Shown piece by piece: positions 12,763 through 35,079 of a stretch of 64,000 nucleotides of DNA. Below the pieces are notes generated by a model. It was not told the DNA's origin, searched no databases, and saw only the letters and a program-made list of their open reading frames with translations. Position numbers and translations under genes: made by a program. Each line of letters opens with the position of its first letter. Positions within the stretch are counted from its first letter, which is position 1. Origin of the DNA: Chamaesiphon sp. (lineage in GTDB: Bacteria; Cyanobacteriota; Cyanobacteriia; Cyanobacteriales; Chamaesiphonaceae); NCBI GenBank assembly GCA_965246715.1, contig CBDFFH010000005.1:96001-160000 (forward strand). Direction: 5' to 3'.

Positions 12763-12800
12763 ATCAAGACTCGATCGATTGGGGTCGATCGAGTCTTGAT
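12763..12800. terminator. Long perfect hairpin downstream of CHAT (3)
   Basis: atcaagactcgatcga-ttgggg-tcgatcgagtcttgat (16-bp arms). Confidence 0.5.
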
Positions 12801-12889
12801 TAATCCTCCGCAGAGCGCGGACTTATAGCGTGTTAGGGTGACACTGGTGATAGCGATCGGTCAAATCGATCGCCATTGTCCAAACAGTT

Positions 12890-15946: not shown

Positions 15947-15974
15947 GAGTATCTCCAATATTTTTAACGCAAAC

Positions 15975-16820: not shown

Positions 16821-16825
16821 AACAC

Positions 16826-17899
16826 CTAACCAAAAAACACGCTAACCATCTTGGCTAAAGGCTTCTGGCACTTCCGCACCCAAAAATCCGCCAACATCTC
16901 CGCCGTCAGCTTCTTGTAACCAAACCGCTCCTGTGCCAACTTAGCGATCGCCTCAAAATCCACAGGCGGATCGCTATAGATCCAGAGATGCTGCTGTGCC
17001 ACAAACTGCACCGTCACCTTGGGCATCTTGTTCTTTATTGGTGTCTGCAACACACAATTGGTATCTCGATCGATATCCTCCCGCACCATCGCCGATTGCT
17101 CGTCCGTCAACAAATTAGGCTCTAACAACAACGACTGGGCGCGAGGCACCACATGACGTTCATAAAAAGGGTAAAACTTGTGATATTTCATGCCGTATGC
17201 CGTGGCTAGATCTGTTAGATCGTCCGGTGGCCGTTTAAATCCCATCCGCCACAACACATCTCGCACCGTACAGGTTGGACAGTCAGCATGACTGAAATCC
17301 AACAACTCCGAACTGCCATTTTCTATCAACTCCAGCCACCGATTCTTCGTAACTGATAAATCTTGTGCCAGCATTTCTCTCAAATCTGAGGCTTGGGGTT
17401 GTTCCGCAAAATCTTGCCAATCTAACTGCTCGTCCAGCGATGAGAGTTGATCTCGCTTTTGCTTTCTAAAATAATTGCTGACTGTTGCTTGCACCGCATA
17501 GCGAAAATAGGTACGACAGCAACCCACAACACTAAATCCCGTCGGCGAAAACTTCGGCAAAGTGATTTGCATAAAGTACAAACAACTATCTTGGGCAAGA
17601 TCTTCGATCGTTACTCGATCCTTAATTCCCCACTGCCGAATCCAGTAATAGAGGAACTGGAGCTTATCCCCAGTCAGCAACGGAAACACCTGACCCTCCA
17701 GCCGTTGCTGGACGATTGGGGACGACGCAGCCAACAACTCCGTCAAGATCTGCTTGAACTGGGAGTCTTCAGAGGTCAGACTCGATCGACTTTCCAAACA
17801 ATCATACAAATGCTGCCAGATAGATGAGTGCGATCGAGTCTCTTTCAGAGACACTTCGTGAACGGACATAGGCGGCGAAACCTCTTGTTGTATTACCAT
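16826..17899 (-). CDS. Sigma-70-like protein with a duplicated C-terminal HTH domain
   Basis: Region 2-like 'IEDLAQD..LYF....KFSP....TYF.Y....SSLD' followed by two similar ~80-aa units. Start uncertain (17899 or 17869). Confidence 0.6.
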   Translation of the reverse strand: MVIQQEVSPPMSVHEVSLKETRSHSSIWQHLYDCLESRSSLTSEDSQFKQILTELLAASSPIVQQRLEGQVFPLLTGDKLQFLYYWIRQWGIKDRVTIEDLAQDSCLYFMQITLPKFSPTGFSVVGCCRTYFRYAVQATVSNYFRKQKRDQLSSLDEQLDWQDFAEQPQASDLREMLAQDLSVTKNRWLELIENGSSELLDFSHADCPTCTVRDVLWRMGFKRPPDDLTDLATAYGMKYHKFYPFYERHVVPRAQSLLLEPNLLTDEQSAMVREDIDRDTNCVLQTPIKNKMPKVTVQFVAQQHLWIYSDPPVDFEAIAKLAQERFGYKKLTAEMLADFWVRKCQKPLAKMVSVFFG

Positions 17900-18509
17900 A
17901 TATAGGCTAATCCTCCAATATATTAGGTGGCCAGCGCAGCAATGAATCTTAGCCATCACGCACCAGCCATTTAAGTAACAGCAAGATTTATCAAAAGTTG
18001 GCAAAAATCGTCAACTTTCTTCAAATCCTTGGCTAGAGGACTTTGTAGCTAGCTTAACCACCACACCAATTTGCCAACTCCAACTCAGAATAGCTATCTT
18101 CCAAGGTTGCCAAAGGACAAATAACATAATTAGGACATCGATCGATCGCCAAGCGGTTTGGGACGAGAATCGGATCTGTCGTCCCTGTGAAAATCACTTC
18201 CATCCACAGATACTGCCAGATAAATAGTTCGATCTGATTTGTAAATAGAGAACAAGACTGAGTAGTTGCCATAAATTTGTTGGTTCTATTTCCTTACCTA
18301 CACCTAGATATCGCAACCGTCGCTAATTTTTTGGCAAGAACATTAGGCTGTCAGACAATAAATTCCAGAGCTATTTCACCTCCAATCGCATTTGATATCT
18401 TAACGATCGAATCAAGCCAAAAGTGCCAAATTCCAAAGACTCTGGGCGATAGATCCTTATCGAGTTGTATGACAGGCTCGTGCAACATCAGTAGCTGAGG
18501 GCCGGATTT

Positions 18510-19610
18510 GTGATTGAGCGAAAATTGGCATTGAAAAAACTCGTTCGCGTAGCGTCCCCTTTGGGGAATCGACTCCAATCGATCGGGTCTGGATTGAACC
18601 GCCGTAAAGCGATCGGAATTATCGCCACCATCCTCGCTTTAACCGGAGCCACTGGCTGTGGTAAACAAGTCTCGATCGATGAATATCCCGCTGTAGCAGC
18701 CGAAAACTTCAACCCTAAACAACTCCCCATACTGCGAAAGCACATTCTCGCGATGTACTTTAGCCGTTACCTCGCTGGAGCTAATAACGACGAGCACAGT
18801 GTCCGCCGCCAGGTGCGCTACTATCGCACTCGCGGCATCAACACCCTAATTGTGGGCGTGTGGGGCAATGGCTGTGCGATGTATCAAAGCGAAGTTACCA
18901 AAAGGCTGCTCGGTCAATCTAGCTGTCCCAACACCTTCCCAGATCGGTGGCTGGATTGGACGATCGACGAAGCCAAGAAACAGGGAATGCAAGTTCACGC
19001 CTACTTCGAGCGCGGCATCAAGATCGATAATAGTAGCCTAATCTACAATCTCGCCGTCACCCGCAAATGGTTAATCCCAGGAGTCGATCGCACCTATCCC
19101 AAGATGGAACAGTATGTCTTCGATGTCGAACATCCCGAAGTAATCGCCCTGTTTAAAGGCGTGATGGCTGAATTTGTCAACAGATACCCGACGATCGATG
19201 CCGTGCAGTGGGACGACTTTCTCGCCTACTCTGTGAAGCTCCCAGGCATAAATCGCACTGCCAAACTGACCAAATTCTCGATCGATCTGTATCACATTAC
19301 CAAACGAGCTAATCCCAGAGTTAGCTTCGATCTGTGCCATCTCAACCCTGATTGGTCGAAACGGACATTATCAGCCGACTGGAAACGCTGGAAAATCGAT
19401 CGAGCGTTTGTCCAACTTTACAGCGAACCGACCTTCAGACAAGAACTAGCCTACGCCGAAAACAGTGCGGGAATTGCCATCACCGATAGACAGTTACACC
19501 GCCTACCAGCACTGCTCAAGAACCCCAAAATCAAAGGAATCTTCATTTTCCCCCTCACAGGCAATCCCCGCATGGCTGCGGCGAATCTACAGCTAGCCGC
19601 AGTCAAATAA
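18510..19610 (+). CDS. Glycosyl hydrolase-like 10 (GHL10/YddW-type) lipoprotein
   Basis: Lipobox-like ATGC; 'GINTL...VW..G', 'GMQVHAYFE.G', 'HPEV', 'DAVQWDD'. Confidence 0.75.
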   Translation: MIERKLALKKLVRVASPLGNRLQSIGSGLNRRKAIGIIATILALTGATGCGKQVSIDEYPAVAAENFNPKQLPILRKHILAMYFSRYLAGANNDEHSVRRQVRYYRTRGINTLIVGVWGNGCAMYQSEVTKRLLGQSSCPNTFPDRWLDWTIDEAKKQGMQVHAYFERGIKIDNSSLIYNLAVTRKWLIPGVDRTYPKMEQYVFDVEHPEVIALFKGVMAEFVNRYPTIDAVQWDDFLAYSVKLPGINRTAKLTKFSIDLYHITKRANPRVSFDLCHLNPDWSKRTLSADWKRWKIDRAFVQLYSEPTFRQELAYAENSAGIAITDRQLHRLPALLKNPKIKGIFIFPLTGNPRMAAANLQLAAVK

Positions 19611-19754: not shown

Positions 19755-20567
19755 ATGGCTACAGACAATAGAGGGGTGATGGTTTACCTGCCATCAGAAG
19801 TAGAAGTGAAGATGGTCGAGTATTGTACTCAGCACAACATCACCCGTAAAGACAAGCAAGGAAATATCGTCACATCATTAGGAAGTGGGATAGTTGCGTA
19901 CCTCAAAAGTCAGTTACTTGGTGACATACCTAGAGTGGTGAGTGACAGACCTACTACTGGATTGACCAGGGAAGAAGTAATAGATTTAATAGCAGAGTCG
20001 AGTACTGGTAACACACCAATCGTTGGCGTAGCCTCTCTTGCGGAGAATCGATCGCCCGATCCATTAGGTGCGGATGTTTTACACCGTCTAGAAACGATCG
20101 AACAACAGCTATCATCGCCTATAGGCATATCGAGAGATGAGGTAGAGCAACTAATTCAATCATCGGAACAGAGAGTGATGGAGGCTGTCCGTAGCCTACA
20201 AGGTGAACTGGCGAAAATTAAAGCCATTGACGAGCGAGTCAGCACTCCCCAGTCCTCAAGCTCCAGACACAGCCAAAAGCGGGCAAGCGAGGATGCTGCG
20301 ATTAACTCGCCAGCTACAGATACCGAATCAATTGGTGCTATACCTGGCAATAAGCCTCCGACTAAAGATATCAAAAGATGGCTAGAACCTTTGAAGGATA
20401 ATAAGTTCAGTGACATTATTCAGACTGCCGTCGCTGAGAAGTTGAGCAATCAGGAGATAGTCACCAGATTGTATGATTCGGGCTATGGGAAGAATAACAA
20501 CACCGAGCCATATCCCCCCAACCTCGCCAGTGCAATGAAGACGGCTCTTTTATTGCTGAATAATTAA
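19755..20567 (+). CDS. Hypothetical protein, possibly DNA-binding
   Basis: 270-aa ORF; N-terminal 'VMVYLP..V...' looks ribbon-helix-helix-like; contains a 24-nt hairpin insert. Confidence 0.55.
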   Translation: MATDNRGVMVYLPSEVEVKMVEYCTQHNITRKDKQGNIVTSLGSGIVAYLKSQLLGDIPRVVSDRPTTGLTREEVIDLIAESSTGNTPIVGVASLAENRSPDPLGADVLHRLETIEQQLSSPIGISRDEVEQLIQSSEQRVMEAVRSLQGELAKIKAIDERVSTPQSSSSRHSQKRASEDAAINSPATDTESIGAIPGNKPPTKDIKRWLEPLKDNKFSDIIQTAVAEKLSNQEIVTRLYDSGYGKNNNTEPYPPNLASAMKTALLLLNN

Positions 20568-21842
20568 GACAAATCTTGACAGATAAAATCTGCCCTTTCA
20601 TAAGAATTGCGGAAAATAGGTCAAACTACGACTCAGCAGCATCTTTCTTTAAAATGGATGTTTCTGCGGAAATCCATTCAGATGGAATCAATGCAGTACC
20701 ATTGCGCCAACGTTCCACTACAGCTTCTTCATACCAAGTTTCTGCAATATCAGCGTGTTCGGTGATAATTATTTGGAAGTTGGGCTGAAGTTCTTCCACA
20801 ACATCTCTTATCAGCTCAAACATGCGGACGACCGCCGCCCTATCTTCATCACCAAGATCTGTTGCAGACCGTTGTATATTTTGTTCTGCGGGGAAATATA
20901 CCTGCGATGGTTGATCCAAGAATAGAAAATGTGGAACTGGCCTAGACTTTTTGACAAACCACAAATGGAGAGCAAGATGAGCGATCAAATGGCAACCTAC
21001 CCAGTTAGCTCCACTACCCATTCGATCCATGCGGATAGGCCCACCATCGGTATCTGCGACTACTTGTAAATTTCGCAGATCCAATCGAAATGGATTGCCA
21101 CTATGCTCAAGCTCTAGTTGATTTGACCATATAGTCATATCTTTTGAGATAACAGATAAAATCGAGTCCAGACGCTCCTGAAGATTATCGTTACTTAGGT
21201 TTGCCGCTAGCTGTTTTATCTCAGATTGGAGTTTGGAGATCTCTGTTCTTAATTCAGATGAATCAGCAATCTGCGGGAGAGTTTCGAGAAATAAGCTAAT
21301 TCTTCCAATTACATAAGCCCTACGAGAAGAATTATGTCTTAGTTCCATTAATCTATCATCTGCATCTCGTAAGGCTTCAAGGACACTTCTATTCTCCCGC
21401 AACAGTCTCTTTGTATCAGTAATCTTCTGTTCTTGATCGATTATTAACATCTCTAGACCTGGAGTGTGCCTGATAACTTGGTCGAGTTGTTTTGATGCTG
21501 TTTGTAGCTCTACTTCTAGAGTGTTGAATGATGGAATATCTGTAGGCCGATCGCATAATGGACAGCAAGGTTGCTCTGCAACATTAAAAAGTTGAAGACT
21601 TGTAAGTCGAGAAACCTGCTCTCCAACTTCTTTTTCAAAACTGCCTTTATCGGAAAGTAGAATTTTCATACCCTCTAAATCATCCTTTTGCCGAGCAAGT
21701 TGCTCTCGGAGATCTGTGCGTTCATCATTTAGTCTTAAAAGTTCTGATTGATCGATACTCTGTTCGTAGCGAGTGAGCTGTTCTTCCGGTGAAGTCTTTA
21801 TCACTGTACTTAGTAATTCAATGGCCGCACCCCAAGAATCTG

Positions 21843-23257
21843 GGTTCTACCGAACTTACTATGCTAAATCAAGGATTGAAATGCCATGCTAGCAAACTTC
21901 TGATCTGAAAATTCTCAAAATTTCTAAACCCATATCCCATTCTTTTTATTAGCTTGAGTTTATTGTTAATTCCTTCGACGACTCCTTGAGTTGTTCTATT
22001 ATCAAAATAGGCAATTATTTCACCAATCCATCTTTTAATAGTTCCACAACTCTTGGGGAATTTCCCACAAGCATTCTTGAGCCAGTCACACAAGCTTATT
22101 AGCCCATTTCCCCAATCTGTTTTTGATTCAAATATATCTCTAAATAACTCTTTTGTTTTGTGCATTGCTGCTAATTCTGGAAAAACGTCTCCAATCTCTT
22201 TCAACTTCTCTTTTTGCAATTCATTCAAATCCGCTTCGTTTTTGAGTATTGCATATTTACTGTGAGTTAATGCTGCTAATTTCTTGTTCTTTTCATCTTT
22301 GTTCTTCACCCTCTCAGCCTCTCTTTTGATTTTAATTCTCTCTCGATCTAACTCTTCATTTATCTGTTTCATTACATGAAATCTGTCTCCAACCACTTCA
22401 GCATTTGGTATCAATTCATTTACCAGACTTTTGTATGATGAAAATAGATCGATACTTACTTCTGTAATTTGGTTCAAAACCTCCGAACCCCAAGACTTCA
22501 AGCACTCACCAATACATTCTTGAGTCCTTTTTGGTAAGATGGCTATTAACTCTCTTTTTTCTAGATCTACTAACACCGCACAATAGTTTTTTTGCCCTTT
22601 AACAAAGGCAATTTCATCAATTCCTAGTCTGGTTAAATTCTCTGGCTTTTTTTGCACTAGATTTACCCCAGCTTTTTTGATTATTGTCTCCACTTCTTGC
22701 TCACTTAATCCATTTCTTTTGGCAACACTTTTAATATCACTAGCTAGACTCTCTTCGACAATCTTCTGCTTCATTCGCTCGGTGAAATGACTTCTCTTTT
22801 TGATGAAATTTAATTCCTCACTGAATTTTCGACCACAACTCATACACTTGAATTGACGACGATTAATTTTAAGGTAAACATCATGTTCACCGAATGGTAG
22901 ATCTCTCACTGTTAATTGGTGATTCTCATGAAGTTTATTACTTTCAGTTCCACAATGAGGACACACTGCTTTTAATTGCTGATTTTCTAGATAAATAAAA
23001 TAACCGATTTCATCTAAGATCTTATAAGCAGTGACGGTCATTCCGTCGATATTAAGAATTTCATTAATGGTTTTTAGTTGCGATTTGGATGACATAATGC
23101 AATTCAAGCTTATTTGTTGCCAGAAATCAAGATCTTACTATTCTATAATAAAATCTGTCATTTATGCTGCACCAAGCTTCCATAACTCAAAATTATCAAT
23201 TTTGTCAATTAAACTTGATTCTTATCCACTACTTAGCATAGCAAGTTCGGTAGAGCC
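21843..23257 (-). mobile_element. ISL3-family insertion sequence (1415 bp)
   Basis: 25-bp inverted repeats ggttctaccgaacttactatgctaa / ttagcatagcaagttcggtagagcc (23/25 match); 8-bp target duplication agaatctg at 21835-21842 and 23258-23265. Confidence 0.95.
21869..23107 (-). CDS. ISL3 transposase
   Basis: CPHCG...C..C zinc finger, LGIDE, DRFHV, EGINNKLKLIKR.GYGFRNF. Confidence 0.95.
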   Translation of the reverse strand: MNCIMSSKSQLKTINEILNIDGMTVTAYKILDEIGYFIYLENQQLKAVCPHCGTESNKLHENHQLTVRDLPFGEHDVYLKINRRQFKCMSCGRKFSEELNFIKKRSHFTERMKQKIVEESLASDIKSVAKRNGLSEQEVETIIKKAGVNLVQKKPENLTRLGIDEIAFVKGQKNYCAVLVDLEKRELIAILPKRTQECIGECLKSWGSEVLNQITEVSIDLFSSYKSLVNELIPNAEVVGDRFHVMKQINEELDRERIKIKREAERVKNKDEKNKKLAALTHSKYAILKNEADLNELQKEKLKEIGDVFPELAAMHKTKELFRDIFESKTDWGNGLISLCDWLKNACGKFPKSCGTIKRWIGEIIAYFDNRTTQGVVEGINNKLKLIKRMGYGFRNFENFQIRSLLAWHFNP

Positions 23258-24018
23258 AGAATCTGGAGCTTCATCTAAAGCCAATAGTCCAACATCTCGC
23301 CCTTCTGAAAGCAGTGCAGATGCTTCACTAATTCCTCCACTTGCCATAGATTCAAGTCGAGCTAGTGCAAGTTCCTGTTTCTGCAATGAACGACGTAGTT
23401 CTCTAAGTCTTGCTTTCTCAGCCATATAGTTTTCATCTACTACTCCGAGAAAGTATGGCAACGTATCTTTGATTGCTTGTGCAGTCCAATTATCGCTTTG
23501 TTTATGAAATAGAAAACCAGGCTGGCTAATTTCATGTTGAGGCTGGAATGCGAAGATAAGCGCATGTCTGAGTGTTGTCGTTAGGGGAGGTCGGGTTTGT
23601 CCATCAGGAGGTTCATGAACACTGAGATCGATACCGACAATACCTTTCAATTGCTCAATCAGAGTTTCAATGTTAGTTGTAACAGAGAGCCGATCTGCGG
23701 GAGGAATGGTTATTGTTGAACCCACCATATAGTAAGCTCCTGAGTTGCTTACTTTTCCAGGATCTGGTGCGCGACGTGCAATGAAATACTCGGCAGAACC
23801 ATCAGTAAGTCGGAGTGCATACCAGCCAACACTATTTCTAATAACTCCTTCTGGGACAGCACATGATGAGCTGCCCAGGCAGTAATCAACTATGCCAATC
23901 AAAGCAGATTTTCCTGTTTTCGAGTCCCCTGTAATTATATTGATTGCACCAGGACGAAGTGACAACAGACGGCGTTCACCCTGCAATGAATACAGGATAA
24001 TATCAAGGATCTGAATAC

Positions 24019-24519
24019 TCAAGGAGCAACCCCCCAGAGAGCCATGATGGTTGAGTATTCACCGGAGGATGCAAACCATTTGCCCACGAACTTAGCCTTT
24101 TTCATACAATCATTAACTTCCTCTGAAGCCTGTGTCAAGAAACTGTTCATCGAACGCGGTCGTGTTGCCGCAAGGATTTGTGAGGAAGATAATTCAATTA
24201 ACTTACCATTTGCACCAAATAGTATACCTTCTTTGATCAGAGGTACCAAGGCTGTTGCTCGTTCCGCGAAGCGAACATGAGCCTGTGGATTTTGGACAAG
24301 CCAAGTAGCCATAGATGTTCTGGTTGTTCTCGGCAAACTTTCTCGCGTAGCCTTGTGTAGAGTCACAGGCATTGCAATGAATGTTAAAGGATAAGGAATG
24401 CCTCGTTCCGTGACACTGCTATATCCTTCACTACAAGACCAAAGCAGTGCGGCAAGAAACGCGGGATTAAGAAGTCGAGCTTGCTCGACGGATCTATCTG
24501 ACCATATAGGAGTACTCAT
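24019..24519 (-). CDS. lmuC: Lamassu/ABC-3C middle component (LmuC-like)
   Basis: 'LLNPAF', 'PVTLH..TR..LP', terminal 'LWGVAP'; 4-bp overlaps with both neighbours. Confidence 0.8.
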   Translation of the reverse strand: MSTPIWSDRSVEQARLLNPAFLAALLWSCSEGYSSVTERGIPYPLTFIAMPVTLHKATRESLPRTTRTSMATWLVQNPQAHVRFAERATALVPLIKEGILFGANGKLIELSSSQILAATRPRSMNSFLTQASEEVNDCMKKAKFVGKWFASSGEYSTIMALWGVAP

Positions 24520-25727
24520 GTGACCCCCTTCGGCTCAAGAATCTGCTGAAGATGCTGCATGAATTCAGGATGCCACCCAACTTTTAGCCGATCGGATAGC
24601 ATGTGAAATGACCCCCTGGTCATGCTTGGATGCTGGACTTGGGAACGAATTGGAAAAGAACTGTTTTCAACCCAAGCATAGATCTTTCGAGCAACTTCTC
24701 GCTTGATTTCCTCAGATTCGTTCTCACCAAGCTCATCAGATATGCGGTCAAACTGAAGCTCCCATTCCTCTCGTAGCAATTGCTCATACCTATCGAGTTC
24801 ACCAACTAACACCAGATCCTCTCGCACCCATCGGGATCGTTGTTCAAAGGCACGGTAGTAGTCCCGAATCGCGGCGAAGATTCGTTTATTGCCAATACCA
24901 ACCATTCTCACCTGATGGACAAAAACAGCATCTTCGTAAGCTGTCACGTCAACATCAGCACTCAAAATATCCTGATCTACAGGAAGAGCATCAGGATTAA
25001 ACTGCTCACGAAGAATATCAAATTCGCCTTCAATTTCGCTGCTAAGGATTGGAGATGAACTTGAGTCGTTCAATTGCCTAATCACTCGCTGATACCACCA
25101 ACCTTCGAGCCTTGTTAGAAAAGAGTCAAGATGGTTGCGTCGCACTGCGAGGCGAGCCTCTGAGCGAAGAGCGTCCTCAACACGAACAATATTTGGTGCA
25201 TTGGGAAATATGACAACAGAACCGATCAGTGCTGCTTGCTCATCTGGTTGAAGGCACCGAAATAGCTTATACGCTGGTTCATTCTTCTGGTTGCTAGAGG
25301 TATTTACTGTTGCTCGTAACCGATCGAGAGCCTTCACTTCATCGCGATTATCGATCGTCAGATAGCTAGCTGAAGAACCTTCACCAACTTTACTAGTCGT
25401 AATCAAATACAGCTTTGCATCTTTAGGAATTTTTTGATTTTCTCGACCCTCAATCCAAACTCGTAAACTCTTCCATATGTCAGGACTCGCATCAGTCAAG
25501 CTTGCTGCACGATCGCAGTGATGCTTCATCTGCAACAACTCGGATGCCGAGCCATCACGATCGAAGACAACATCATCAAGTGTCTCCAGGTAGGCTGCAA
25601 ATTCTTCATTTTGAGCAAGACGTTGAAGAGATGATAGCAACGCCCACCTCACTTGGTATAAGTACCCAAGTGCAGCATCGGTAGCGGAAAAATCAGTCTG
25701 TGTTTGTGAGTTTGAAGCCACTAGCAT
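24516..25727 (-). CDS. lmuA: Lamassu effector LmuA: Cap4-like PD-(D/E)XK nuclease plus ABC-3C C-terminal domain
   Basis: 'A...ALGYLYQ', 'ETLDDV', 'QMKHH' nuclease motif; C-terminal 'RGSFHML.D...GWHP'. Confidence 0.8.
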   Translation of the reverse strand: MLVASNSQTQTDFSATDAALGYLYQVRWALLSSLQRLAQNEEFAAYLETLDDVVFDRDGSASELLQMKHHCDRAASLTDASPDIWKSLRVWIEGRENQKIPKDAKLYLITTSKVGEGSSASYLTIDNRDEVKALDRLRATVNTSSNQKNEPAYKLFRCLQPDEQAALIGSVVIFPNAPNIVRVEDALRSEARLAVRRNHLDSFLTRLEGWWYQRVIRQLNDSSSSPILSSEIEGEFDILREQFNPDALPVDQDILSADVDVTAYEDAVFVHQVRMVGIGNKRIFAAIRDYYRAFEQRSRWVREDLVLVGELDRYEQLLREEWELQFDRISDELGENESEEIKREVARKIYAWVENSSFPIRSQVQHPSMTRGSFHMLSDRLKVGWHPEFMQHLQQILEPKGVT

Positions 25728-25993: not shown

Positions 25994-26230
25994 TCACTGG
26001 AAATTTTCAGAGATTTTTTTTAACAAAGCCTTCCTCTCTCGCCCCAACTGAGACAAGAATTCTCTCATTACCTTCGATCGCAATCCATGTTTAAGCGAGT
26101 TTCGGGCGGCTTTTGCCTTTCCGACCGGGCTGGTTGGCCCCGTCGAGCGTTCCCACGGACGCTGCTGGTAGATCGATAACTTCATGCGAGAACTCTGCTG
26201 TTTCCGTGCTTCCAAATTCCACCTTGGCAT
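25994..26230 (-). CDS. HGGxSTG-like small basic protein
   Basis: 'PW..STGP.S..GKA...NSLKHG' motif typical of small genes in integrative elements and phage satellites. Confidence 0.65.
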   Translation of the reverse strand: MPRWNLEARKQQSSRMKLSIYQQRPWERSTGPTSPVGKAKAARNSLKHGLRSKVMREFLSQLGRERKALLKKISENFQ

Positions 26231-26756
26231 AGGGTCGATCCTCCAATTGTTTCTGTAGTTCTTCAGTCTTCGTTACTAATTGATTCACCTGCTGCGCGAT
26301 CGCATTCTTGATGAACACCGTCTTCGGTTTAGGATTTTTGATGTCGTGAATTGTCTGTAACGTCTTCCGCGCCTGCTCCTGCGCTTTCATCGCCGCCTCT
26401 GAATAGGTCACAAACTGGTTGCTATTGGTTGTCAGAGTAGCCATCTGCATATATCGATTAAATGCCGCGTTGAGGATAGCCACCTGCCCATAGAGCAATT
26501 CAGTCACCGCCATAGCTTCATCGGTCATCAATGCTGTTGTTTGAGCCTCGATCGCTTCCTGAATCTGTAAAGTCTGTTCGGTGCCAGTCTGCTTTTCAGA
26601 CCCATGAATCAACAGATTGAGGGTATGTGCCGCCCCAAAGCTGGGATCTGCAACTCCCAGCATCTGAAGATCCAAGAGAACCTGACCTTTTTCGTTACAG
26701 GGCAGAACTCCAAACTTGTCAATATATTGCTGGGCTAATTTATCTTTCATGTTCAT
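26091..26756 (-). CDS. Conserved mobile-element hypothetical protein
   Basis: 'AMKAQEQARKTL..I....NP...FIKN...QQVN' pattern I recognise from genes upstream of HGGxSTG ORFs. Confidence 0.6.
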   Translation of the reverse strand: MNMKDKLAQQYIDKFGVLPCNEKGQVLLDLQMLGVADPSFGAAHTLNLLIHGSEKQTGTEQTLQIQEAIEAQTTALMTDEAMAVTELLYGQVAILNAAFNRYMQMATLTTNSNQFVTYSEAAMKAQEQARKTLQTIHDIKNPKPKTVFIKNAIAQQVNQLVTKTEELQKQLEDRPYAKVEFGSTETAEFSHEVIDLPAASVGTLDGANQPGRKGKSRPKLA

Positions 26757-26767
26757 CTCCTCGATGA

Positions 26768-28765
26768 TTAATGGAATGGTGTTTTGAGCTGAATTGGGGA
26801 AGATTGAGGCATAACCACTGTCGTCTTTTCGATCCCCAGAATAGATCGATATGCTGTATCTAGTAGACCGACATAGTGCTCCGCCCAGTATGGCTCGGTA
26901 GTAGTTTCTAGGGGATAACTGGCAAGCACTTTACCCGTTTTGGAATGGCAACGCTTACCTTCCGTAAGCCAGTAGCTCACACGATCTCCTGGCTTGCCAA
27001 TGCCCAGTTCTACCAAATTCTTCTCCGCAGAGCCGATTTTCCGATTGATAGTCAGATCGGCTACATCGATCCGGCGATCGATTAATAACGACCGAGTCTG
27101 GTGGTAATATTCATCAGCCGCTTGGGGCGATTCAATAAAATAGAGCCGCAGGAATTCGATCGGGAATTTATTCTCCAAGGGGTAACGATTCCGCTTTCTG
27201 AATAGTCCCTTAACCGTAGTTTTACCACTGGGATGAACGATCACATAGCTCTTAGCTTTGGGTGCATATAAACCGCAATCAGTTAGCTCTAGATCGATGT
27301 TGATCCCAGTAGGCAACGACCCAGAAACAAGCTCCTTAACTGTCTCTGGGTCATTATGACTAAATAACACCCCGTCGGTATCAATCTCGATCACTACGCC
27401 ACCGCAACTAGTTACCACTTCAACCATCAGATCCAAGATCTTCCGCCCGTAGGCGGTCACTAGAGCCGCCGCTTCGTAATCATTGAAAGTATAGAAACCA
27501 GTCCCCATAAACCCATATGAGCCGTTAATCAGAATCTTCAGCGATTTCTCTTGAAATGCTGCCGATTTGTCCCCAGATTTAGCCAATGCTTTGAGTTTTA
27601 ACCGTGCATCAACCATGTAAGCCAGTGCCCCCAGAAACTTATTCCCGTTATCTTTGCGACTACAGATCCCATATCTGAGCATGATCGAAGGATAGAGACT
27701 GGATACATCGATTTTGGCAACTTGCTGGTGTAGCCCTGGTGCCACTAGTTCGACCTTCCCACCATCATATTTAAGCGGCTCATCCGATTGAGGATTCAGC
27801 CGAGGTAATAATTTCTCGTGAATCTTCTGAGCTTTGAGTGCTGGCGAGGCGATCGCAATTTGCTGGAATGACAGCGCAGGCACATAAGCCAATTGATAGT
27901 ACACGACTGGTAACAGAAATTCAGCGAGTAGTTGCGTATCATCGAGATCGAATTTCAGATAATTCTCGATCGTCTCAGTATCGCCCGATTCCCAGCACTC
28001 GCGAATCTGGTTGACAGATAGTTCTAATCGTCTGTCATCTCTTAGCCCCAGTGCAATAACACTAGATTTGAGGTCATATCGATCGAGTCTTGCAGCTTGC
28101 TTATCCCAAATAGCGATCTGTTGGTAGGTATCGAGAATGTTAACACCACTCCAATAAATCGGAGTAAATTCGATTGGCTTACCATTCACAGTTGAAGAAG
28201 TGATCCGGCTGGTTTTATTACCCTTGCGGAACAGTTGAGAGATATTATGAACCCGACAGCGATCGGCTAAAAAGGGCAAATCGAAGTTAATCAGGTTATG
28301 ACCGATCAGGCATTCTGGTTGATGTTGCTTGAGGTGCTTGATCGTTCGAGCAAGCAGCGTCTTCTCATCTGGGTCTTTCAGGATAGTTATCTCTCCTTGA
28401 TTGTTAAGCAACCCAACCATTAATACTCGATCTGTTTTGGGATTTAACCCAGTCGTTTCGATATCAATGTAAATCTTAGTCAATTCCTCATAGGGTTTGA
28501 GTTTTACGGATGGCTGCCACTGGGGAATAAGTGTCTGGGGTTGATAATCGAGGGACAACCGATCGAGGTCAACTTCGACGCGCTCGCTAGTAATAGTGAC
28601 AGCATTCCGAGGATTGGGATGTAAAATCTCAACCACTCGATCCCGATTGATTATTTTCAAGTTTCCATCATCATCGGCGATAACTATTCTGACACCATGT
28701 ACCTTCAAAACCTCCCTGCTCAAGCCCTTAGCACTAGTAACGATCGATCCTACTACAATGTTCAT
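26768..28765 (-). CDS. Family B DNA polymerase with 3'-5' exonuclease
   Basis: Exo I DIETTG, Exo II HN..NFD, Exo III Y..FD; polymerase motifs DVSSLYPS, K...NGSYG, DTDG, K.Y and KG. Confidence 0.92.
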   Translation of the reverse strand: MNIVVGSIVTSAKGLSREVLKVHGVRIVIADDDGNLKIINRDRVVEILHPNPRNAVTITSERVEVDLDRLSLDYQPQTLIPQWQPSVKLKPYEELTKIYIDIETTGLNPKTDRVLMVGLLNNQGEITILKDPDEKTLLARTIKHLKQHQPECLIGHNLINFDLPFLADRCRVHNISQLFRKGNKTSRITSSTVNGKPIEFTPIYWSGVNILDTYQQIAIWDKQAARLDRYDLKSSVIALGLRDDRRLELSVNQIRECWESGDTETIENYLKFDLDDTQLLAEFLLPVVYYQLAYVPALSFQQIAIASPALKAQKIHEKLLPRLNPQSDEPLKYDGGKVELVAPGLHQQVAKIDVSSLYPSIMLRYGICSRKDNGNKFLGALAYMVDARLKLKALAKSGDKSAAFQEKSLKILINGSYGFMGTGFYTFNDYEAAALVTAYGRKILDLMVEVVTSCGGVVIEIDTDGVLFSHNDPETVKELVSGSLPTGINIDLELTDCGLYAPKAKSYVIVHPSGKTTVKGLFRKRNRYPLENKFPIEFLRLYFIESPQAADEYYHQTRSLLIDRRIDVADLTINRKIGSAEKNLVELGIGKPGDRVSYWLTEGKRCHSKTGKVLASYPLETTTEPYWAEHYVGLLDTAYRSILGIEKTTVVMPQSSPIQLKTPFH

Positions 28766-28826
28766 TTAATCCTCCAGTTCAATTGCTCCGTCGTAGTTTG
28801 CATCTCATTCAATCCGCGTAATTAGC

Positions 28827-31559
28827 TCAAAAGTCTTCCTCTGTAGCTGGTGGAATAATGTCGATATCAATCTCAGCCAACAGATCATCTTGTTGCGATT
28901 GAGAAATTCGAGAATCTTTAGTAACTTTAGTAACAGGAACACTTAAATCTTTGCTGCACAAAGGTTTAAGACTGTTACTAGAGCAAGAATTAGCTAGTAA
29001 CTGGTTAGTAACAATTGCTGATGGCTGATGGCTACAACCTTTGACCTGTGCGGATTCAACGTTGTTACTAGACCAAGTAGCAGTATCCAAACCGTTATCT
29101 TGTAGCGATTCTGGAATATTCTGCGATGCTGTTGTTACTAAGCCGTTACTAGATGATTCATTTTCTAGTAACAGTGTTTTTCTTTGCGCTATTGACGTTT
29201 CAGACTTTTTGTTACTAGAGTTACTATGGTTTTCTAGAATTTCGATTTTGTAATCCGAGGATTGTCTTCTTGATTCATCATTTTCACGCGCATATCCTAG
29301 TTCAACTACTTTAAGCATGAAAGCCCGAATATCTTTGGCAGATGGTTTAGATTTGCCCGACCACCAATGTGTAACCATCCGAGTTGTTACCCACCCCTTC
29401 CCCCCAAAACGATTGATAAACTTCAGAATTCGAGCATCAGCGGGATCTGTTGTTGGATTAGAACCTGTCAGTGCTAACACCTTTTCGGTTTCTAGTAACA
29501 AACACCGACCCAATTCGATCGCGTGGTACATAGTGCTTGCTGACACTTCTCGATCAGGCTGTTTATTGTCCACCGCTGCCAACAACAAATGTAGAGCTAG
29601 TGCCAATCTTGCTACCCGATCCTTTGCCTTACCATAGATGCTTTCTAAGAATGTGCCGCTTTGATCGATCGTGAGATCGACCATATGGTTATACCAATCA
29701 GACCATAATTTTTGAGCCTTTGAGCTAGCTGTAAATGTTTGAGAGCTAAAGCCGTCAATAGTTGCATAAATCTTGGATAAAGCGGTGTACAGTAACCCGT
29801 CAGGATTGGGATCGTGAGAATAAGTTGCTGTTGTTGGTAAGTTGAAAAATACGAGTCTCGCCCACAGACCATCTTCCTTGTTGTCATCCTGCTCGAATAT
29901 TTTGGAGAGAGTCGTGTACTGGGTTGTTCCGACCAGAGATATCGCCGTTTTCTCGATGTGAATTCTCGGAGAACCTTTTCGTGTTACCTTCAGCTCATTC
30001 CCGTCGTACAAACTTAGCATTCGAGATCGATTATTAGCGGTTCCATATTTCTCAAAATCAGTAAACCCTTTAAGTTCATCTATCTTGATCAATAAGCAGT
30101 GTGATTTTTGGAACTGGCCGATATAGGCAAGAGATTCATATGTGTAGTCATCAACATAAAACTCTCGACATGCTGGTGAGTTGGGCTTGTCACCTAAATC
30201 TTCTTGTTTTTGACGTTTTTGCCGTTCGTATTCAGCTAATTCGCGCTCATACGCATCTACAGCTATGGCATATTCTTCATTCGCACCTTTTTGCAGTGCA
30301 GTGAGCGGCGATGTTATTGTTTTTAAGACTTCACTTTTGCCGCTGTTGGATGTACCAACTATTCCCACCCAGAGAATGGGTTTACCCCTAGTTTCCCTGA
30401 CATTTAGGGCGATCTCTACCTTAGACAGAGACAATACAACAGCTAATAAAGGTGCGACATATACCAGTGCGGGCAATGACCAGCGGATTGCTTCAGCTTC
30501 GATTAATCCTTTGAGTACATCGGGTAACGCCGATGCGGGATCGTATTCACTCTTTGTCAATAATCGGCTCAGGTCTTCGGATGCTTGTGAAACCACCTCT
30601 AGCCGATACCCTTGGTTAATCGCCTTAGTTTTGGCAGAATGATAAACTGCTGGTGGAGGACACCCCCCGTGACAGATAAAACCGCCCGTATCGCGATCGA
30701 TGTGAAGAGAATCATTACTTTCGCCATCGTGCGCGGGACACTTACACGTTATCCACCCTTGTCTGCCATCCTCCCGATAGCCCTCCAGATAAGGCGCGAA
30801 AGATCGAATGTCCGTTGGTGATGAATCGCTAGCTTCTATTTCTCTGATGGACTTGGTAGCCCATCGATCGAGATCGAGATCTGGCAACACTCGATCGAAT
30901 TCAGCGAGAGAATAACGGACATCGTTAAGCTGTAACAGTTCACAGGGAACGCGATCGAAGTTTTGAGTTTCAATGTTCCAAGAGAGATGGTCGAAACATG
31001 GTAATCTCATCAACTGAGCTGGATCGGCTAAGCTATCATCATCACAGTTCGAGTATTGAATCCACTGCCGCTGATAAGTGGCTAATCGATCGATTCTGAT
31101 AATTTCAGATGCCCAATAAGCGTGCAGCGATTTTCTAGTTTTAACAACTGCGGTAGGTTTTCCAAATTCAGCAGTTATTCGATCGATCTCCCGTTGTTGA
31201 TCTTCAAATGAGGCTTGATCGCTCTCATGAAAAAGTGTGGAACCATGGGTGATTTGGGAATTCTTATCACCGCCGTGGTGGGCGGCAAAATAGACCCCAT
31301 AACCTTGCTGGTTCAAAGATTTAAGGTATCCCCAACCATCTGGGATGACCACATGTCGATCCCGTCGCTGCTGAGAGAACTCGCCATTTTCTAAATTGAT
31401 GTAGCCTCGAACAACCGATATCTTAATCTCACCTGCTTGATTGGTGTATGTCATTCCCCGTGTCTCTAGTTCTAGCAGGGGACTATTCTTGGGTGGTAGG
31501 CAGCGAATGTAGACCCGATCTGAATGCCCGATTGCCTGAAGGAAATTAACGACATTCAT
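28827..31559 (-). CDS. Primase (RepB-like) / zinc finger / DUF3987 replication protein
   Basis: 'HESD', 'KSLHAYW', 'DP..LMRLP' primase motifs; CPAH...C..GC zinc finger; P-loop G.SNSGKS; DE; DGL.AR. ATG at 31559 is coupled to the upstream stop. Confidence 0.8.
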   Translation of the reverse strand: MNVVNFLQAIGHSDRVYIRCLPPKNSPLLELETRGMTYTNQAGEIKISVVRGYINLENGEFSQQRRDRHVVIPDGWGYLKSLNQQGYGVYFAAHHGGDKNSQITHGSTLFHESDQASFEDQQREIDRITAEFGKPTAVVKTRKSLHAYWASEIIRIDRLATYQRQWIQYSNCDDDSLADPAQLMRLPCFDHLSWNIETQNFDRVPCELLQLNDVRYSLAEFDRVLPDLDLDRWATKSIREIEASDSSPTDIRSFAPYLEGYREDGRQGWITCKCPAHDGESNDSLHIDRDTGGFICHGGCPPPAVYHSAKTKAINQGYRLEVVSQASEDLSRLLTKSEYDPASALPDVLKGLIEAEAIRWSLPALVYVAPLLAVVLSLSKVEIALNVRETRGKPILWVGIVGTSNSGKSEVLKTITSPLTALQKGANEEYAIAVDAYERELAEYERQKRQKQEDLGDKPNSPACREFYVDDYTYESLAYIGQFQKSHCLLIKIDELKGFTDFEKYGTANNRSRMLSLYDGNELKVTRKGSPRIHIEKTAISLVGTTQYTTLSKIFEQDDNKEDGLWARLVFFNLPTTATYSHDPNPDGLLYTALSKIYATIDGFSSQTFTASSKAQKLWSDWYNHMVDLTIDQSGTFLESIYGKAKDRVARLALALHLLLAAVDNKQPDREVSASTMYHAIELGRCLLLETEKVLALTGSNPTTDPADARILKFINRFGGKGWVTTRMVTHWWSGKSKPSAKDIRAFMLKVVELGYARENDESRRQSSDYKIEILENHSNSSNKKSETSIAQRKTLLLENESSSNGLVTTASQNIPESLQDNGLDTATWSSNNVESAQVKGCSHQPSAIVTNQLLANSCSSNSLKPLCSKDLSVPVTKVTKDSRISQSQQDDLLAEIDIDIIPPATEEDF
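28919..29226. repeat. Iteron-like cluster (GTTACTA/TAGTAAC x11) inside the primase 3' region; candidate origin
   Basis: Heptamer at 28919, 28928, 28974, 28995, 29006, 29064, 29134, 29145, 29166, 29211 and 29220, in both orientations. Confidence 0.65.
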
Positions 31560-31750
31560 TAATTGACCTCCTCCCAGAGCGCACAAAACATACAACGCCC
31601 AATACCATAACCATCAAACTCGATCGGCTGATTGTGACAATCTTCGCAAACTGATGAAACGTATCTGATATGAGTTTGAAACGTTATGAGATCATTTTGA
31701 ATACTCGAAACTCGCACGTCGTTAAAAGACGCGCCAATACTGTCTGGCAT
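31559..31750 (-). CDS. Small Cys-rich (CxxC...CxxC) protein
   Basis: CEDC...CMFC; GGAG RBS; its stop overlaps the primase start. Confidence 0.5.
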   Translation of the reverse strand: MPDSIGASFNDVRVSSIQNDLITFQTHIRYVSSVCEDCHNQPIEFDGYGIGRCMFCALWEEVN

Positions 31751-31893
31751 GGAGTGCTCCTGTTGATTGAAGATTACAGAGCATCCAAAGGTTGTGTTAA
31801 GATCGAACTAATATTTTCAAAAGCCGATCTAGTTCCAACCCCATTGGATACTAGATACATAACCCTTAACCTCGATAGGTTCGGGGTTATTCG

Positions 31894-32160
31894 CTATTTG
31901 GCTTTTGGAAGAGTAGATAAGTACTCCTCTATAAGAGCTTGATGTTCGGGTAGATCCTTCCCATTAATTAAATAATGGGATAGGAGAGTCCAATTCCAAA
32001 GGATCGATCCTCCCTTAACCATCTGAATCCAGTAAATGCCTCGTGGCAATTTATTTCTGAGCTGAGCAGAATGCCAACGAGTAAATTCTGCTTTAAGTTT
32101 TTGTACCGATCTCTCTGACAAAAACTTAAATTTGTCACAATCCTGTAGCTTTGCAGGCAT
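31894..32160 (-). CDS. Probable excisionase / small DNA-binding protein
   Basis: 88 aa, 'L..GIYW......ILWN..L' winged-helix-like; heads the replication operon near the integrase. Confidence 0.5.
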   Translation of the reverse strand: MPAKLQDCDKFKFLSERSVQKLKAEFTRWHSAQLRNKLPRGIYWIQMVKGGSILWNWTLLSHYLINGKDLPEHQALIEEYLSTLPKAK

Positions 32161-32515
32161 ATGAGATAATCTATGTGTATTTTTGGTGCGACCGACCAGC
32201 CTCTAAATAGATACTGGTCAGTCTTTTTGACTGGTTGGGTGTACCGCTGGTAAAGCAGTTACAGCAGTATAGAACAATCACCTATAAACATCACTATCTA
32301 TAGGACGACATTTTTACAACATTGCGTAACTCTACTTTGCTACAAACTCTAAATGTAAAGAATTGACAATTGAGAAATTTTGTAATTGTAAATATCTGTA
32401 TTTTAGATATCCACTAAATAATCAAAACATCTAAAACTGTGCTGTTCACATGATATTTGTCCAAAGCGTGGAAGATGGATTTGAATAGCCAAACTTATGA
32501 CATAATTTTGTAACA

Positions 32516-33646
32516 CTATTCATATAAAGAGCCTGTAATTTTAATGTTTTTCGATTTAAGGTAGGCTTGCCAAGCTCGGTAGCTATTTTTGCATTCTTGT
32601 TCTTCACAGTGCCATGCCACCTTTCCGTTTCTAGCTTTCTCAAACCATCTCAACCTGTAGCAAAATTCACAAAGACACAACATCTTGCGTTTCAGATTTT
32701 TGATTTCAGATTTGCGCTCATTACTCCTTCTAACTCGATCGTTCCAATCGATTTGTAACTTAATGAATTCAGGACATTCTCGTGCAAGTAGCTTATATAT
32801 ATTTGCCGTGTATGATTTTGCTCTGTAATAATCAGTGAACAGCACCATTTTTCTTTTATAAGAGTCTTTAATGCACTCGTGGTATTCTTGTTGCTTTTTA
32901 TTGAATGTCATTCTTATATTTGTTATCTCTCTTCGATCTCCATCCTTCATTTGCTGATAAAATTCTTGTAAAAAATTGTTAAATATTCGATCTTTATCTA
33001 CATTTGGTAAGTGCGTGATGCGAAAAGGCACTACGTCATCAAGATAGTTAAGCACCAATTGATGGTATCGAAAGCGTGTATAACTTATCTGGCTTAAATC
33101 TTCTCCATCTCCAAAAAAATATTCAAAAGCATAATTCATCGCATCAGACAAAGATAAATTTTCGAGGAGTTTACGATTTGCAATTTCTTTTTTGTCTAAA
33201 AATTCCTTGATGACTCGATTGATTCGTGATGGTATTGTATCTTCATTGCGAATATTCTCGATCGCCCAGTCACTCATTGTCTTAAAGAGTGAATGAGAAT
33301 TAGGATCGAATGGTTGTTGAATTCTATAATTTTCAAGAGAAAGTCTTACAACTAGTTTGTTATCACCAGATTCATTCACAAGCTTGTTAACAATATCTAG
33401 AAGCCAATTACCTTTCTTGTAATTAGCATGTTCGATGATTTTTCTAGCTGATTGTTCCTGAGTTTTTGTAGCACCATACTGCCTTAAAATATTAGTAATA
33501 AGAATTAGATCTGGTACTGGCATAATGATTAGCTCTCGCAGCATTTTCTCGTTAGGAATAGTGTAAGTTTCGTCGTCAAGTCTGATTTTGATACTTTTCC
33601 ATTCTGATAATGGAATAATCGATATAGATGGATTTCCGTAATTCAT
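32516..33646 (-). CDS. Hypothetical protein with a C-terminal Cys cluster
   Basis: 376-aa AT-rich ORF ending in CEFC...WHC....C (zinc-finger-like). Confidence 0.55.
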   Translation of the reverse strand: MNYGNPSISIIPLSEWKSIKIRLDDETYTIPNEKMLRELIIMPVPDLILITNILRQYGATKTQEQSARKIIEHANYKKGNWLLDIVNKLVNESGDNKLVVRLSLENYRIQQPFDPNSHSLFKTMSDWAIENIRNEDTIPSRINRVIKEFLDKKEIANRKLLENLSLSDAMNYAFEYFFGDGEDLSQISYTRFRYHQLVLNYLDDVVPFRITHLPNVDKDRIFNNFLQEFYQQMKDGDRREITNIRMTFNKKQQEYHECIKDSYKRKMVLFTDYYRAKSYTANIYKLLARECPEFIKLQIDWNDRVRRSNERKSEIKNLKRKMLCLCEFCYRLRWFEKARNGKVAWHCEEQECKNSYRAWQAYLKSKNIKITGSLYE

Positions 33647-33671
33647 AATGTAAATAGTTATTGAAATTGTT

Positions 33672-33701
33672 TCCAGCTACTTTGTTGTGTAAGTAGCTGG
33701 A
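33672..33701 (-). terminator. Hairpin downstream of the integrase
   Basis: tccagctactt-N8-aagtagctgga. Confidence 0.5.
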
Positions 33702-33708
33702 TATTTTT

Positions 33709-34863
33709 CTATTTTCCGCCAAAATCTACAAATGGACACTCTCGATCGATCGAGTGCAAATATGTATCTATCAAGACGCGCTTGCTATGCCCTGTCTGCT
33801 CGGCTAAAGCTGTAAGATCGGCTCCATTTTTCGCTGCGTGAGATATTACGCTGTGCCGAATGTTGTATGGTCGCGTGTACTCTATGTTGCAACTAGCTAA
33901 AATCTTTTTCCATTGCCTCTCCCTGAATCGATGATCGTTCATGGATTTCCCTTTTGGAGCGGGAAATACTAGGTCGTCCGGTTTTGGCTTAACTCGTTCG
34001 TATCGTTCGGCCAGCATCGATTTTACTGTAGCTGATAGCTTAATTGTGCGAGATTTCCCCGTCTTGGTACCCTTCTTGTTCACATGTCCCCTGCTGATTG
34101 ATTGCCCAATCCAAGCGGTCGAAAAACTCGTGTCCAAATGCTTCCATCGTAAAGCTGCAACTTCTCCGAATCGACAAGCAGAATGAGAGATAAAAATTAC
34201 GAATTCGGTATAACGGTAGTACGTAGGGTGAGCTTTGAAAGCGGCAATAATTGCCTGGAATTCGGCGATGGTTAGGGGGGCATCATGTTCTGGGGGCTGG
34301 ACTGTCATTCGAGCGATGAGACCGCTCCAGGGGTTGAAATCTGCCAGGTGATATTTGTCCTTAGCCCAATCCCACGCCGCTCTCAAGTCAAATAAATATC
34401 CTTTAATCGTCCGATCCGATACCTTTCGATTCGATGCCGACTTAGGCCATCGTACTATTACGTCTTTCGCCACCGATTCCGTTACTTTGGCGGCAGGCTT
34501 GTTCCCTAGAACTTGCCCTAGCTTGGATGCGATACCCTTGAGTCTCACTCTTGAACTGTGGGATAGATCTCGATCGAGAAGGCGATCTTCTGCATATGCC
34601 TTAAATAGGTCTACAGCAGTGATTTTACTGATTTCAACCTTGGGCTTTCTGCCACGCTTGTTAGGGTTCTGGTATTTTTCCTTCGTTTTGTCAAAATTTC
34701 CGCACTCTATGTCACGCTCGATCGTGCCAGCAACGATCTTGGCATAAGCGTTACCTGTAACATTATCCTTGACACCCAGCGGTAGCTGGTATCTCTGGCC
34801 TTCAAACAACCACCGCAATCTCAGGGTGGTACCTTTCTTGTCAGTCCAAACTTTCGTACTCAT
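33709..34863 (-). CDS. int: Tyrosine recombinase / integrase with N-terminal arm-binding domain
   Basis: Catalytic residues: R (ACRFGE), K (TKTG), Y..RH (YNIRHS), GH and Y (DTY). Confidence 0.92.
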   Translation of the reverse strand: MSTKVWTDKKGTTLRLRWLFEGQRYQLPLGVKDNVTGNAYAKIVAGTIERDIECGNFDKTKEKYQNPNKRGRKPKVEISKITAVDLFKAYAEDRLLDRDLSHSSRVRLKGIASKLGQVLGNKPAAKVTESVAKDVIVRWPKSASNRKVSDRTIKGYLFDLRAAWDWAKDKYHLADFNPWSGLIARMTVQPPEHDAPLTIAEFQAIIAAFKAHPTYYRYTEFVIFISHSACRFGEVAALRWKHLDTSFSTAWIGQSISRGHVNKKGTKTGKSRTIKLSATVKSMLAERYERVKPKPDDLVFPAPKGKSMNDHRFRERQWKKILASCNIEYTRPYNIRHSVISHAAKNGADLTALAEQTGHSKRVLIDTYLHSIDRECPFVDFGGK

Positions 34864-34864
34864 T

Positions 34865-34888
34865 TTGGGGGGTCTATTGGGGGGTCTA
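34865..34888. repeat. Tandem 12-bp direct repeat between the integrase start and the tRNA (candidate arm-type site)
   Basis: ttggggggtcta x2. Confidence 0.55.
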
Positions 34889-35005
34889 CATAACCGCCAA
34901 ACCAGCCAAAACAGCCTATATATTGCTACCCGTAGACAGCAGAATTCGGCTCTTAGGACATGATTTGTTTCCTAAAAGCCTTACCAGCAGTATATTACCA
35001 ACCTA

Positions 35006-35079
35006 TGGACGTACGCCGACTCGAACGGCGGACCTCATCGATGTCAACGATGCGCTCTAACCAACTGAGCTATACGTCC
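35006..35079 (-). tRNA. tRNA-Val(GAC)
   Basis: GGACGTA acceptor stem, D-arm GCTCAGTTGGTTAGAGC, anticodon arm CATCG-TTGACAT-CGATG, TTCGA T-loop; CCA not encoded. Confidence 0.96.

Follow-up and report, generated by a model that had tools for sequence, protein, structure and literature searches.

The window analysed here is a stretch of 64,000 nucleotides from the cyanobacterium Chamaesiphon sp. (positions 96,001 to 160,000 of contig CBDFFH010000005.1, or G000:C5:96001-160000, where G000 is the host genome and C5 the contig). It holds the tRNA-proximal part of an integrative island of 46.0 kb, in which a gene for a family B DNA polymerase (PolB) lies directly downstream of one for a primase-helicase. 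Each end of the island carries a 51-bp tRNA-Val repeat, with matching likely arm sites of the integrase just inside it, and the core genes of the island are co-oriented on the minus strand below tRNA-Val(GAC), in the order integrase, hyp376, xis-like gene, an open reading frame (ORF) with paired cysteines, primase-helicase, PolB, hyp221 and ORF78:

35006..35079, minus strand: tRNA-Val(GAC), the integration target (ARAGORN)
35002..35052: 51-bp att core, the 3' part of the tRNA, with an exact copy at G000:C5:85047-85097, 46.0 kb off and beyond the window
34865..34888: tandem 12-nt repeat, likely the integrase arm sites, with the same pair just inside the distal end (C5:85156-85177)
33709..34863, minus strand: tyrosine integrase, 384 amino acids, inward-facing, PF00589 (E 2e-21) plus Arm-DNA-bind_2
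32516..33646, minus strand: hyp376, a variable AT-rich gene (GC 0.34) with a C-terminal Cys cluster and no family match
31894..32160, minus strand: xis-like protein, 88 amino acids, no family match, excisionase role assigned by position
31559..31750, minus strand: CxxC..CxxC ORF, 63 amino acids, its stop overlapping the primase ATG (TAATG)
28827..31559, minus strand: primase-helicase, 910 amino acids from ATG (922 from an upstream TTG), AEP domain plus DUF3987
26768..28765, minus strand: PolB, 665 amino acids, group G3, exonuclease and polymerase domains and an N-terminal domain of about 50 amino acids
26091..26756, minus strand: hyp221, conserved and helical, in most cases found together with ORF78 downstream of the replication genes
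25994..26230, minus strand: ORF78, overlapping hyp221, with a STGP..KxARNSLKHG motif

The genes from the integrase to the PolB and the hypothetical gene behind it are all intact on the minus strand, as an earlier note on this DNA had listed them, and its description of a compact PolB with a separate primase holds for a proofreading enzyme accompanied by its own primase-helicase gene. That note had taken positions 25994..35079 for the element, which proves larger given the distal repeat. The 10-nt core of the arm repeat has six copies in the genome, four of which lie at the two ends of the island; the sister island of genome G325 has the same arm sites, and the left neighbour island has a different arm repeat. 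A boundary near 19-26 kb of the window was rejected, since that stretch has no other att repeat and the far end is marked by the arm sites.

Across the 46 kb no match to capsid, terminase, tail, relaxase or secretion families was obtained with Pfam (every ORF of at least 90 amino acids, two opposite-strand overlaps excepted) or PHROGs (38 island proteins), and tblastn of the 46 kb with TrwC and two small terminase (TerS) queries likewise returned no match. The claim that capsid and conjugation genes are lacking thus extends to the part further left, where virion or type IV secretion system (T4SS) genes would have spoken against it.

The polymerase and its primase-helicase

The motifs of the PolB are all intact, namely ExoI, ExoII and ExoIII (DIETTG, HNLINFD at residue 156 and YLKFDLDD) and motifs A, B, C and KxY (DVSSLYPS, KILINGSYG, EIDTDG and KAKSY). 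The glutamate of motif C, which reads VIEIDTDG in the window, recurs in 22 of the 23 extracted relatives, with serine in Nostoc phage A1; it marks group G3, in which the Nostoc and Salinibacter phage PolBs have been placed (PMC7544198). The best solved relatives are archaeal RNA/DNA-primed (primer-dependent) PolBs, the best named relatives come from cyanobacterial plasmids (32-42%), and the top 12 phage matches belong to Nostoc, Anabaena and Dolichospermum phages (36-37%) and Salinibacter phages (27%). A viral scan with the single sequence gave nothing, and an alignment search gave seven viral loci. The piPolBs, which group with protein-primed PolBs, are without the first motif C aspartate (PMC7544198). 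Placed by motif and nearest named members, the PolB fits the described and uncharacterised group G3 and, with both aspartates of DTDG and archaeal best solved matches, is judged not to be a piPolB; the comparison with known clades proposed in the earlier note thus leads to a described group. Among bacterial family B polymerases G3 ranks second in size, and it is kin to the catalytic half of eukaryotic Pol epsilon (PMC12926913, PMC7544198), and a group of cyanophage A-1/N-1 and plasmid PolBs has been described (Chenard 2016, PMC4916379). Purifying selection is indicated by the dN/dS of the PolB, which is 0.12 when it is compared with L027, its nearest relative, and 0.14 for two further pairs. 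Its C-terminal tail, QLKTPF, resembles a degenerate clamp motif, close relatives ending in QLSLL, QLxLxL or QLTLF, and the host genome has one dnaN match, on another contig.

Three related sequences are peculiar in themselves. A viral-contig PolB (57%; L106:825-3728) has an insertion of about 350 amino acids near motif B, possibly an intein; a frameshifted copy beside an AlpA-like gene occurs in a record titled Deferribacterales (L094:6240-8343); and one in a Bacteroidota-titled record (L033) is very like the Chamaesiphon copies and possibly misbinned.

The PolB's N-terminal domain has a distribution of its own. A profile of residues 1-52 (window 28610-28765) run against 42,529 six-frame segments of the host genome retrieved the PolB and two ORFs of about 200 amino acids, the latter with E 1e-13 and the next match at 0.24. 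Such ORFs with a PolB-like start follow the primase in islands without PolB (L193:10830-11495, L194:9627-10214 and L180:6113-6730), and fused relatives align only from about PolB residue 49 onward. This suggests that the PolB became attached to a gene that the islands already had or, in the opposite direction, that these ORFs could be the remainder after PolB loss.

The N-terminal domain of the upstream protein matches the cyanophage S-2L PrimPol (6zp9) in a profile search (E 1e-29), and the top matches of its predicted AEP fold (pLDDT 78) are the same structure and RepB' (3h20/3h25). The AEP residues E112, D114 and H146 are followed by a Cys/His cluster at 274-300, and Walker A (402) and Walker B (491) fall in a DUF3987 helicase domain (E 1e-47). 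The protein is an S-2L-PrimPol/RepB'-like primase domain joined to a DUF3987 helicase. The S-2L AEP synthesises DNA (PMC8065100); DUF3987 is an MCM-related family of superfamily 6 (SF6), one member of which acts as a 5'-3' helicase and binds the primase that goes with it (PMC11724360).

Homologues were drawn from a 50%-cluster protein library, genome scans and BLAST collections. In the genome scan, where 79 loci were kept from the 80 best of 88 matches, 13 loci have a PolB of at least 54% identity, and in 12 of them a co-oriented primase or helicase is upstream or fused, with a clamp or loader gene in none; conservation of the linkage, on which the earlier note had made its proposal depend, is thereby borne out. 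Among the 150 best protein representatives 31 are at least 1200 amino acids long with the PolB C-terminal, that is, fusions; a scan of 31 long proteins (best five families per protein) found DUF3987 in 14, a superfamily 3 (SF3)-type domain in six, AAA_25 in three and DUF927 in one, and the relative P0002 fuses AEP, DUF3987 and PolB in a single chain as in the two genes of the window. In a FastTree phylogeny of 91 rows, all of them G3-like sequences, the PolB falls in a supported clade of 22 mostly primase-linked rows, and the plasmid-replisome clade and that of Nostoc phage A1 are separate from it. The tree leaves aside matches below about 430 amino acids, rows containing stops, representatives ranked lower than 70 and the majority of rows more than 80% identical. 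An S-2L-like AEP plus DUF3987 is followed by PolB in 6/6 islands with enough sequence.

The plasmid relatives have different surroundings. On large cyanobacterial plasmids and plasmid-like contigs (L024:11391-22920 on pCC7120beta, L026, and 56 of the remaining 66 scan loci, L040-L105) the G3 PolB, ending in canonical QLSLF, stands among dnaN, dnaX, holA, holB and ssb. These gene contexts suggest a holoenzyme encoded on plasmids in which PolB takes over from DnaE; a literature search listed no paper on one, and the accessible text of Chenard 2016 (PMC4916379) mentions the polymerase only.

Exchange of the cassette among tRNA islands

The xis-like gene, nearly always placed between integrase and primase, gave 60 matches in 28 of the 39 genomes of the family. 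From 52 regions examined through it, 16 with less than 5.5 kb downstream were set aside; the other 36, which include kin and so are not independent, and many of which come from fragmented assemblies, comprise seven islands with PolB. Islands with a PolB are found at tRNA-Val, -Phe, -Pro, -Thr and -Cys, and two relatives are complete att-bounded PolB islands of 11.9 and 11.3 kb without structural genes. In a tree of 37 integrases the five PolB-linked ones, one of which has a long branch, need five changes and are rejected as a clade (approximately unbiased test, p 1.8e-58). The window integrase pairs with support 100 with that of the G325 sister, an island of 39.7 kb at the same tRNA whose two ends match at 84-89%. 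This sister keeps the integrase (81% identical), the xis-like gene (74%), hyp221 (75%), ORF78 and hyp270, and has a DUF927 primase and no PolB. Conversely, the PolB closest to ours (L027, 78-80%) stands behind a different primase. On this distribution the primase-helicase-PolB module is an exchangeable cassette: within a larger island family it turns up beside unrelated integrases, and most members are without it.

These observations bear directly on the suggestion, made in the earlier note, that primase plus PolB islands form a distinct, pipolin-like class of self-synthesising elements with the PolB as hallmark. The supported clade of island PolBs, the uniform gene order of the six islands and the fact that literature searches found no paper on such an element would favour such a class. 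Nevertheless, it is largely refuted, because the integrases are polyphyletic, with at least five tRNA targets, and the closest island is without PolB, as are 29 of the 36 relatives; moreover, the nearest PolB follows another primase, the same clade includes a viral-contig PolB (L107), and the enzyme itself fits G3. We hold a distinct class to be quite unlikely.

Based on the island boundaries, the intact motifs, the linkage and fusion, the purifying selection, the exchange of the cassette and the biochemical precedents for the AEP and DUF3987 domains, we consider it probable that the island backbone carries an exchangeable cassette of primase-helicase and proofreading G3 PolB which serves to copy the excised island. 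The integrase and the xis-like protein would excise a circle, the DUF3987 domain would unwind it and the AEP domain prime it, and the PolB would extend the primers with proofreading, its C-terminal motif probably engaging the host beta clamp. With a PolB and a primase-helicase of its own the island would therefore bypass host Pol III, DnaB and DnaG, and would still need the host clamp, SSB and ligase.

Several points weigh against this proposal. PolB is present in only seven of the 36 related islands and is not needed for the island lifestyle, since the other 29 manage without it, and the PolB of L036 has no adjacent primase. The tail QLKTPF departs from the QLSLF of the plasmid relatives, and S-2L PrimPol, the nearest solved AEP, had no primase activity in standard assays (PMC8065100). 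The G3 survey, which reports intact sites and a clamp motif, calls the group uncharacterised (PMC12926913). Between the core genes no iterons resembling an origin were conspicuous and no origin was identified, and public contigs at both ends of the island gave nothing usable on circles or amplification.

The same figures can be turned to a different account, in which the PolB is accessory repair or gap-filling cargo for island or host and copying of the island falls to its primase-polymerase or to host Pol III. Besides the many islands without PolB, the solved member of the AEP group polymerises DNA itself, and the report of a G3 copy in every Chlorobi (PMC12926913) suggests a host role in some lineages. 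However, the fixed position behind the helicase and the repeated fusion to DUF3987, SF3, AAA_25 and DUF927 fit a replisome better, as do the plasmid relatives amid clamp and loader genes in 56/66 loci and the Nostoc phage relatives, a replicase candidate; we therefore regard the accessory role as improbable. Going beyond replication of the island by its own cassette, a broader proposal appears to us possible and rather doubtful: the G3 PolB may be the replicase of a widespread cyanobacterial mobile replicon, a cassette, in two genes or fused into a single chain, swapped among tRNA islands, plasmids and phages that would use a bacterial beta clamp in the stead of Pol III and let an island replicate during phage shutdown of the host replisome, the N-terminal domain tethering the unfused PolB to its helicase.

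Other members of the family show further variety. TerS was found in two of the 12 PolB loci checked, as small terminase genes (PF03592) just downstream of the PolB (L027:6347-6925 and L031:13705-14238) that make these loci candidates for polymerase-encoding satellites. A TrwC relaxase is encoded in two PolB-less islands of the host genome (L193:9229-10518 and G000:C9:96192-97451), so that the family includes mobilisable members. Other family members carry TerS or TrwC, while in this copy no gene for packaging or transfer was recognised. A second island of the family (L001:980-6951; G000:C5:78979-84950) starts immediately past the distal att repeat; it has an integrase (44%) and arm repeats of its own and a DUF3854/DUF927 primase, and the two islands form a tandem array at a single tRNA. 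Additional partial copies of the 3' end of tRNA-Val, with att-flank-like sequence nearby (G000:C36:93636-93687 and C1:18507-18555), point to other islands or remnants. In L036 the PolB (L036:6946-13699) is flanked by a SMEK-domain gene, a 495-amino-acid gene and MazF, and an integrase at tRNA-Thr adjoins. By a sequence motif the 495-amino-acid gene, which has no Pfam match, looks like a prokaryotic Argonaute.

Remaining core genes and cargo

The xis-like and cysteine ORFs, for which the earlier note had offered labels, are present, but neither has a family match and the labels express position and motif only. Small Cys/His ORFs stand at the position of the 63-amino-acid ORF in five of the seven relatives inspected, with no direct sequence match. 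A homologue of hyp376 occurs in the sister island (E 2e-51). For hyp221 a single-sequence viral scan gave nothing; in fold searches nothing in the viral library reached E 0.001 and the PDB gave generic helical bundles only. It is a possible small terminase, without a phage match and with a low-confidence model (pLDDT 55). ORF78 shows the second half of what had been called an HGGxSTG-like gene, but not the HGG; it has no NCBIfam, Pfam, PHROG or phage match, its atlas neighbours are unnamed, and its dN/dS against the sister island is 0.21.

The cargo within the window comprises:

24516..25727, minus strand: LmuA (Cap4-like nuclease plus CTD7)
24019..24519, minus strand: LmuC (MC3)
23222..24022, minus strand: LmuB, N-terminal part (profile 1-239 of 611)
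21869..23107, minus strand: ISL3 transposase inside lmuB
20626..21804, minus strand: LmuB, C-terminal part (profile 264-609)
19755..20567, plus strand: hyp270, a recurrent island gene, 56% in the sister island and 32% in a G325 PolB island at tRNA-Thr
1..19610: accessory block inside the island, continuing beyond the window, with CHAT-TPR, sigma-like/DUF1822, toxin-antitoxin and GHL10 genes

The defence cargo noticed earlier is thus a Lamassu system with all three genes present, but it is not intact, lmuB being in two pieces around the ISL3 element; "defence island" suits this copy and some relatives, with the qualification that Lamassu here is interrupted. The ISL3 element has 21 full-length copies in the genome at 99.7% identity or more, a recent expansion. 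A joint that skips the Lamassu block, seen in the public run X1, was set aside, having just 20 letters to one side. About 27 kb of the accessory block is absent from the sister island. Four CHAT-TPR proteins belong to the block (window 554-18004, L001:14157-18499), with DUF1822 and sigma-like genes flanking them in two places, along with toxin-antitoxin pairs.

The broken lmuB would also be expected if the region were an immobile prophage or plasmid remnant with leftover replication genes. Related PolBs do occur in phages and plasmids, and relatives include deleted or frameshifted derivatives: a 3.7-kb att-bounded remnant at tRNA-Pro that keeps only the last 90 or so PolB codons (L126:2360-6140) and frameshifted PolB copies in L028 and L035. 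The perfect 51-bp repeat, the intact arm sites and core genes, the purifying selection and the existence of compact relatives, att-bounded at 11-12 kb and lacking structural genes, all speak against this, and we consider decay to a remnant very unlikely.

Relation to described elements

The G3 or EpsilonN-like clade of the literature shares with our PolB the motif C glutamate, intact sites and the named Nostoc and Salinibacter phage kin, and has a clamp motif that the tail of our PolB resembles in degenerate form, whereas G3 as part of a primase-helicase cassette of an integrative island is not described in the accessible text of either survey (PMC7544198, PMC12926913); this PolB subgroup further differs from G3 at large in the extra domain of about 50 amino acids that it has in common with a small island ORF. 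The PolBs of cyanophage A-1/N-1 and plasmids (PMC4916379) are 35-42% identical over most of the protein and come from the same host phylum, but they lie in a phage genome or beside dnaN, dnaX, holA, holB and ssb, and not behind a primase-helicase in a tRNA island.

Tycheposons (bioRxiv 10.1101/2020.12.28.424599) and phage-inducible chromosomal island (PICI)-like satellites or VEIMEs (PMC9618062) have the same architecture of an inward tyrosine integrase at a tRNA, an optional replication module and variable cargo, with no virion or conjugation genes; it is on architecture that the likeness is judged. They carry TerS in some members and polymerases in some, the latter named for tycheposons and VEIME module 6, so that the statement that satellites carry no polymerase was too strong. 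They differ in that 46 kb exceeds the quoted 10-20 kb, no TerS or capsid gene was found in this copy, and the polymerase family is unstated in the accessible text. By its gene content the island appears to work like a tycheposon or PICI-like tRNA island with a fuller replication module.

Pipolins (PMC11551731) are also tRNA-integrated elements with att repeats, a PolB and defence cargo, but the piPolB is a primer-independent hallmark gene, analysed at lengths of at least 800 amino acids, without the first motif C aspartate. The window PolB has 665 amino acids and DTDG, comes with a primase and is optional (7/36 islands); it is by both motif C aspartates and the archaeal primer-dependent best solved matches that we separate the two. 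Casposons are defined by a Cas1 casposase and terminal inverted repeats. Here there are a tyrosine integrase and direct repeats, with no Cas1 match among the scanned island ORFs. Nor does the island resemble integrative conjugative or mobilisable elements (ICE/IME), as neither a relaxase or T4SS match (Pfam, ORFs of at least 90 amino acids) nor a TrwC match (tblastn) was found in the 46 kb.

HelPrimPolB proteins, such as gp55 of Lactococcus phage 1706 (PMC4889955, PMC7544198), combine primase, helicase and PolB in one module, as do many fused relatives. Those described come from phages and differ from the two genes here, with their SF6-type DUF3987 and canonical motifs, in having an SF3 helicase and in the divergence of motif C and KxY; some of the relatives are SF3 fusions. 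The AgaPP-AgaPH islands (PMC11724360) likewise stand at a tRNA and combine an integrase with an AEP primase, a DUF3987 helicase and genes for defence, but they have no PolB, a term that does not occur in that paper, and their AEP is of another family. Fusions of primase, helicase and PolB are already known for phages, and polymerases are already named for tycheposons and VEIMEs. For G3 PolB cassettes in cyanobacterial islands no paper was found in a literature search that lay outside most subscription papers, and supplements may list such loci.

The locus gives G3 a concrete and testable role, and the two sister islands at the same tRNA, one with and one without the cassette, provide a natural control. 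The one-chain relatives are candidates for a minimal proofreading replisome in vitro. More generally, the replication modules of these islands are exchanged independently of integrase and cargo, and therefore caution is due in defining classes of elements by their polymerase alone.

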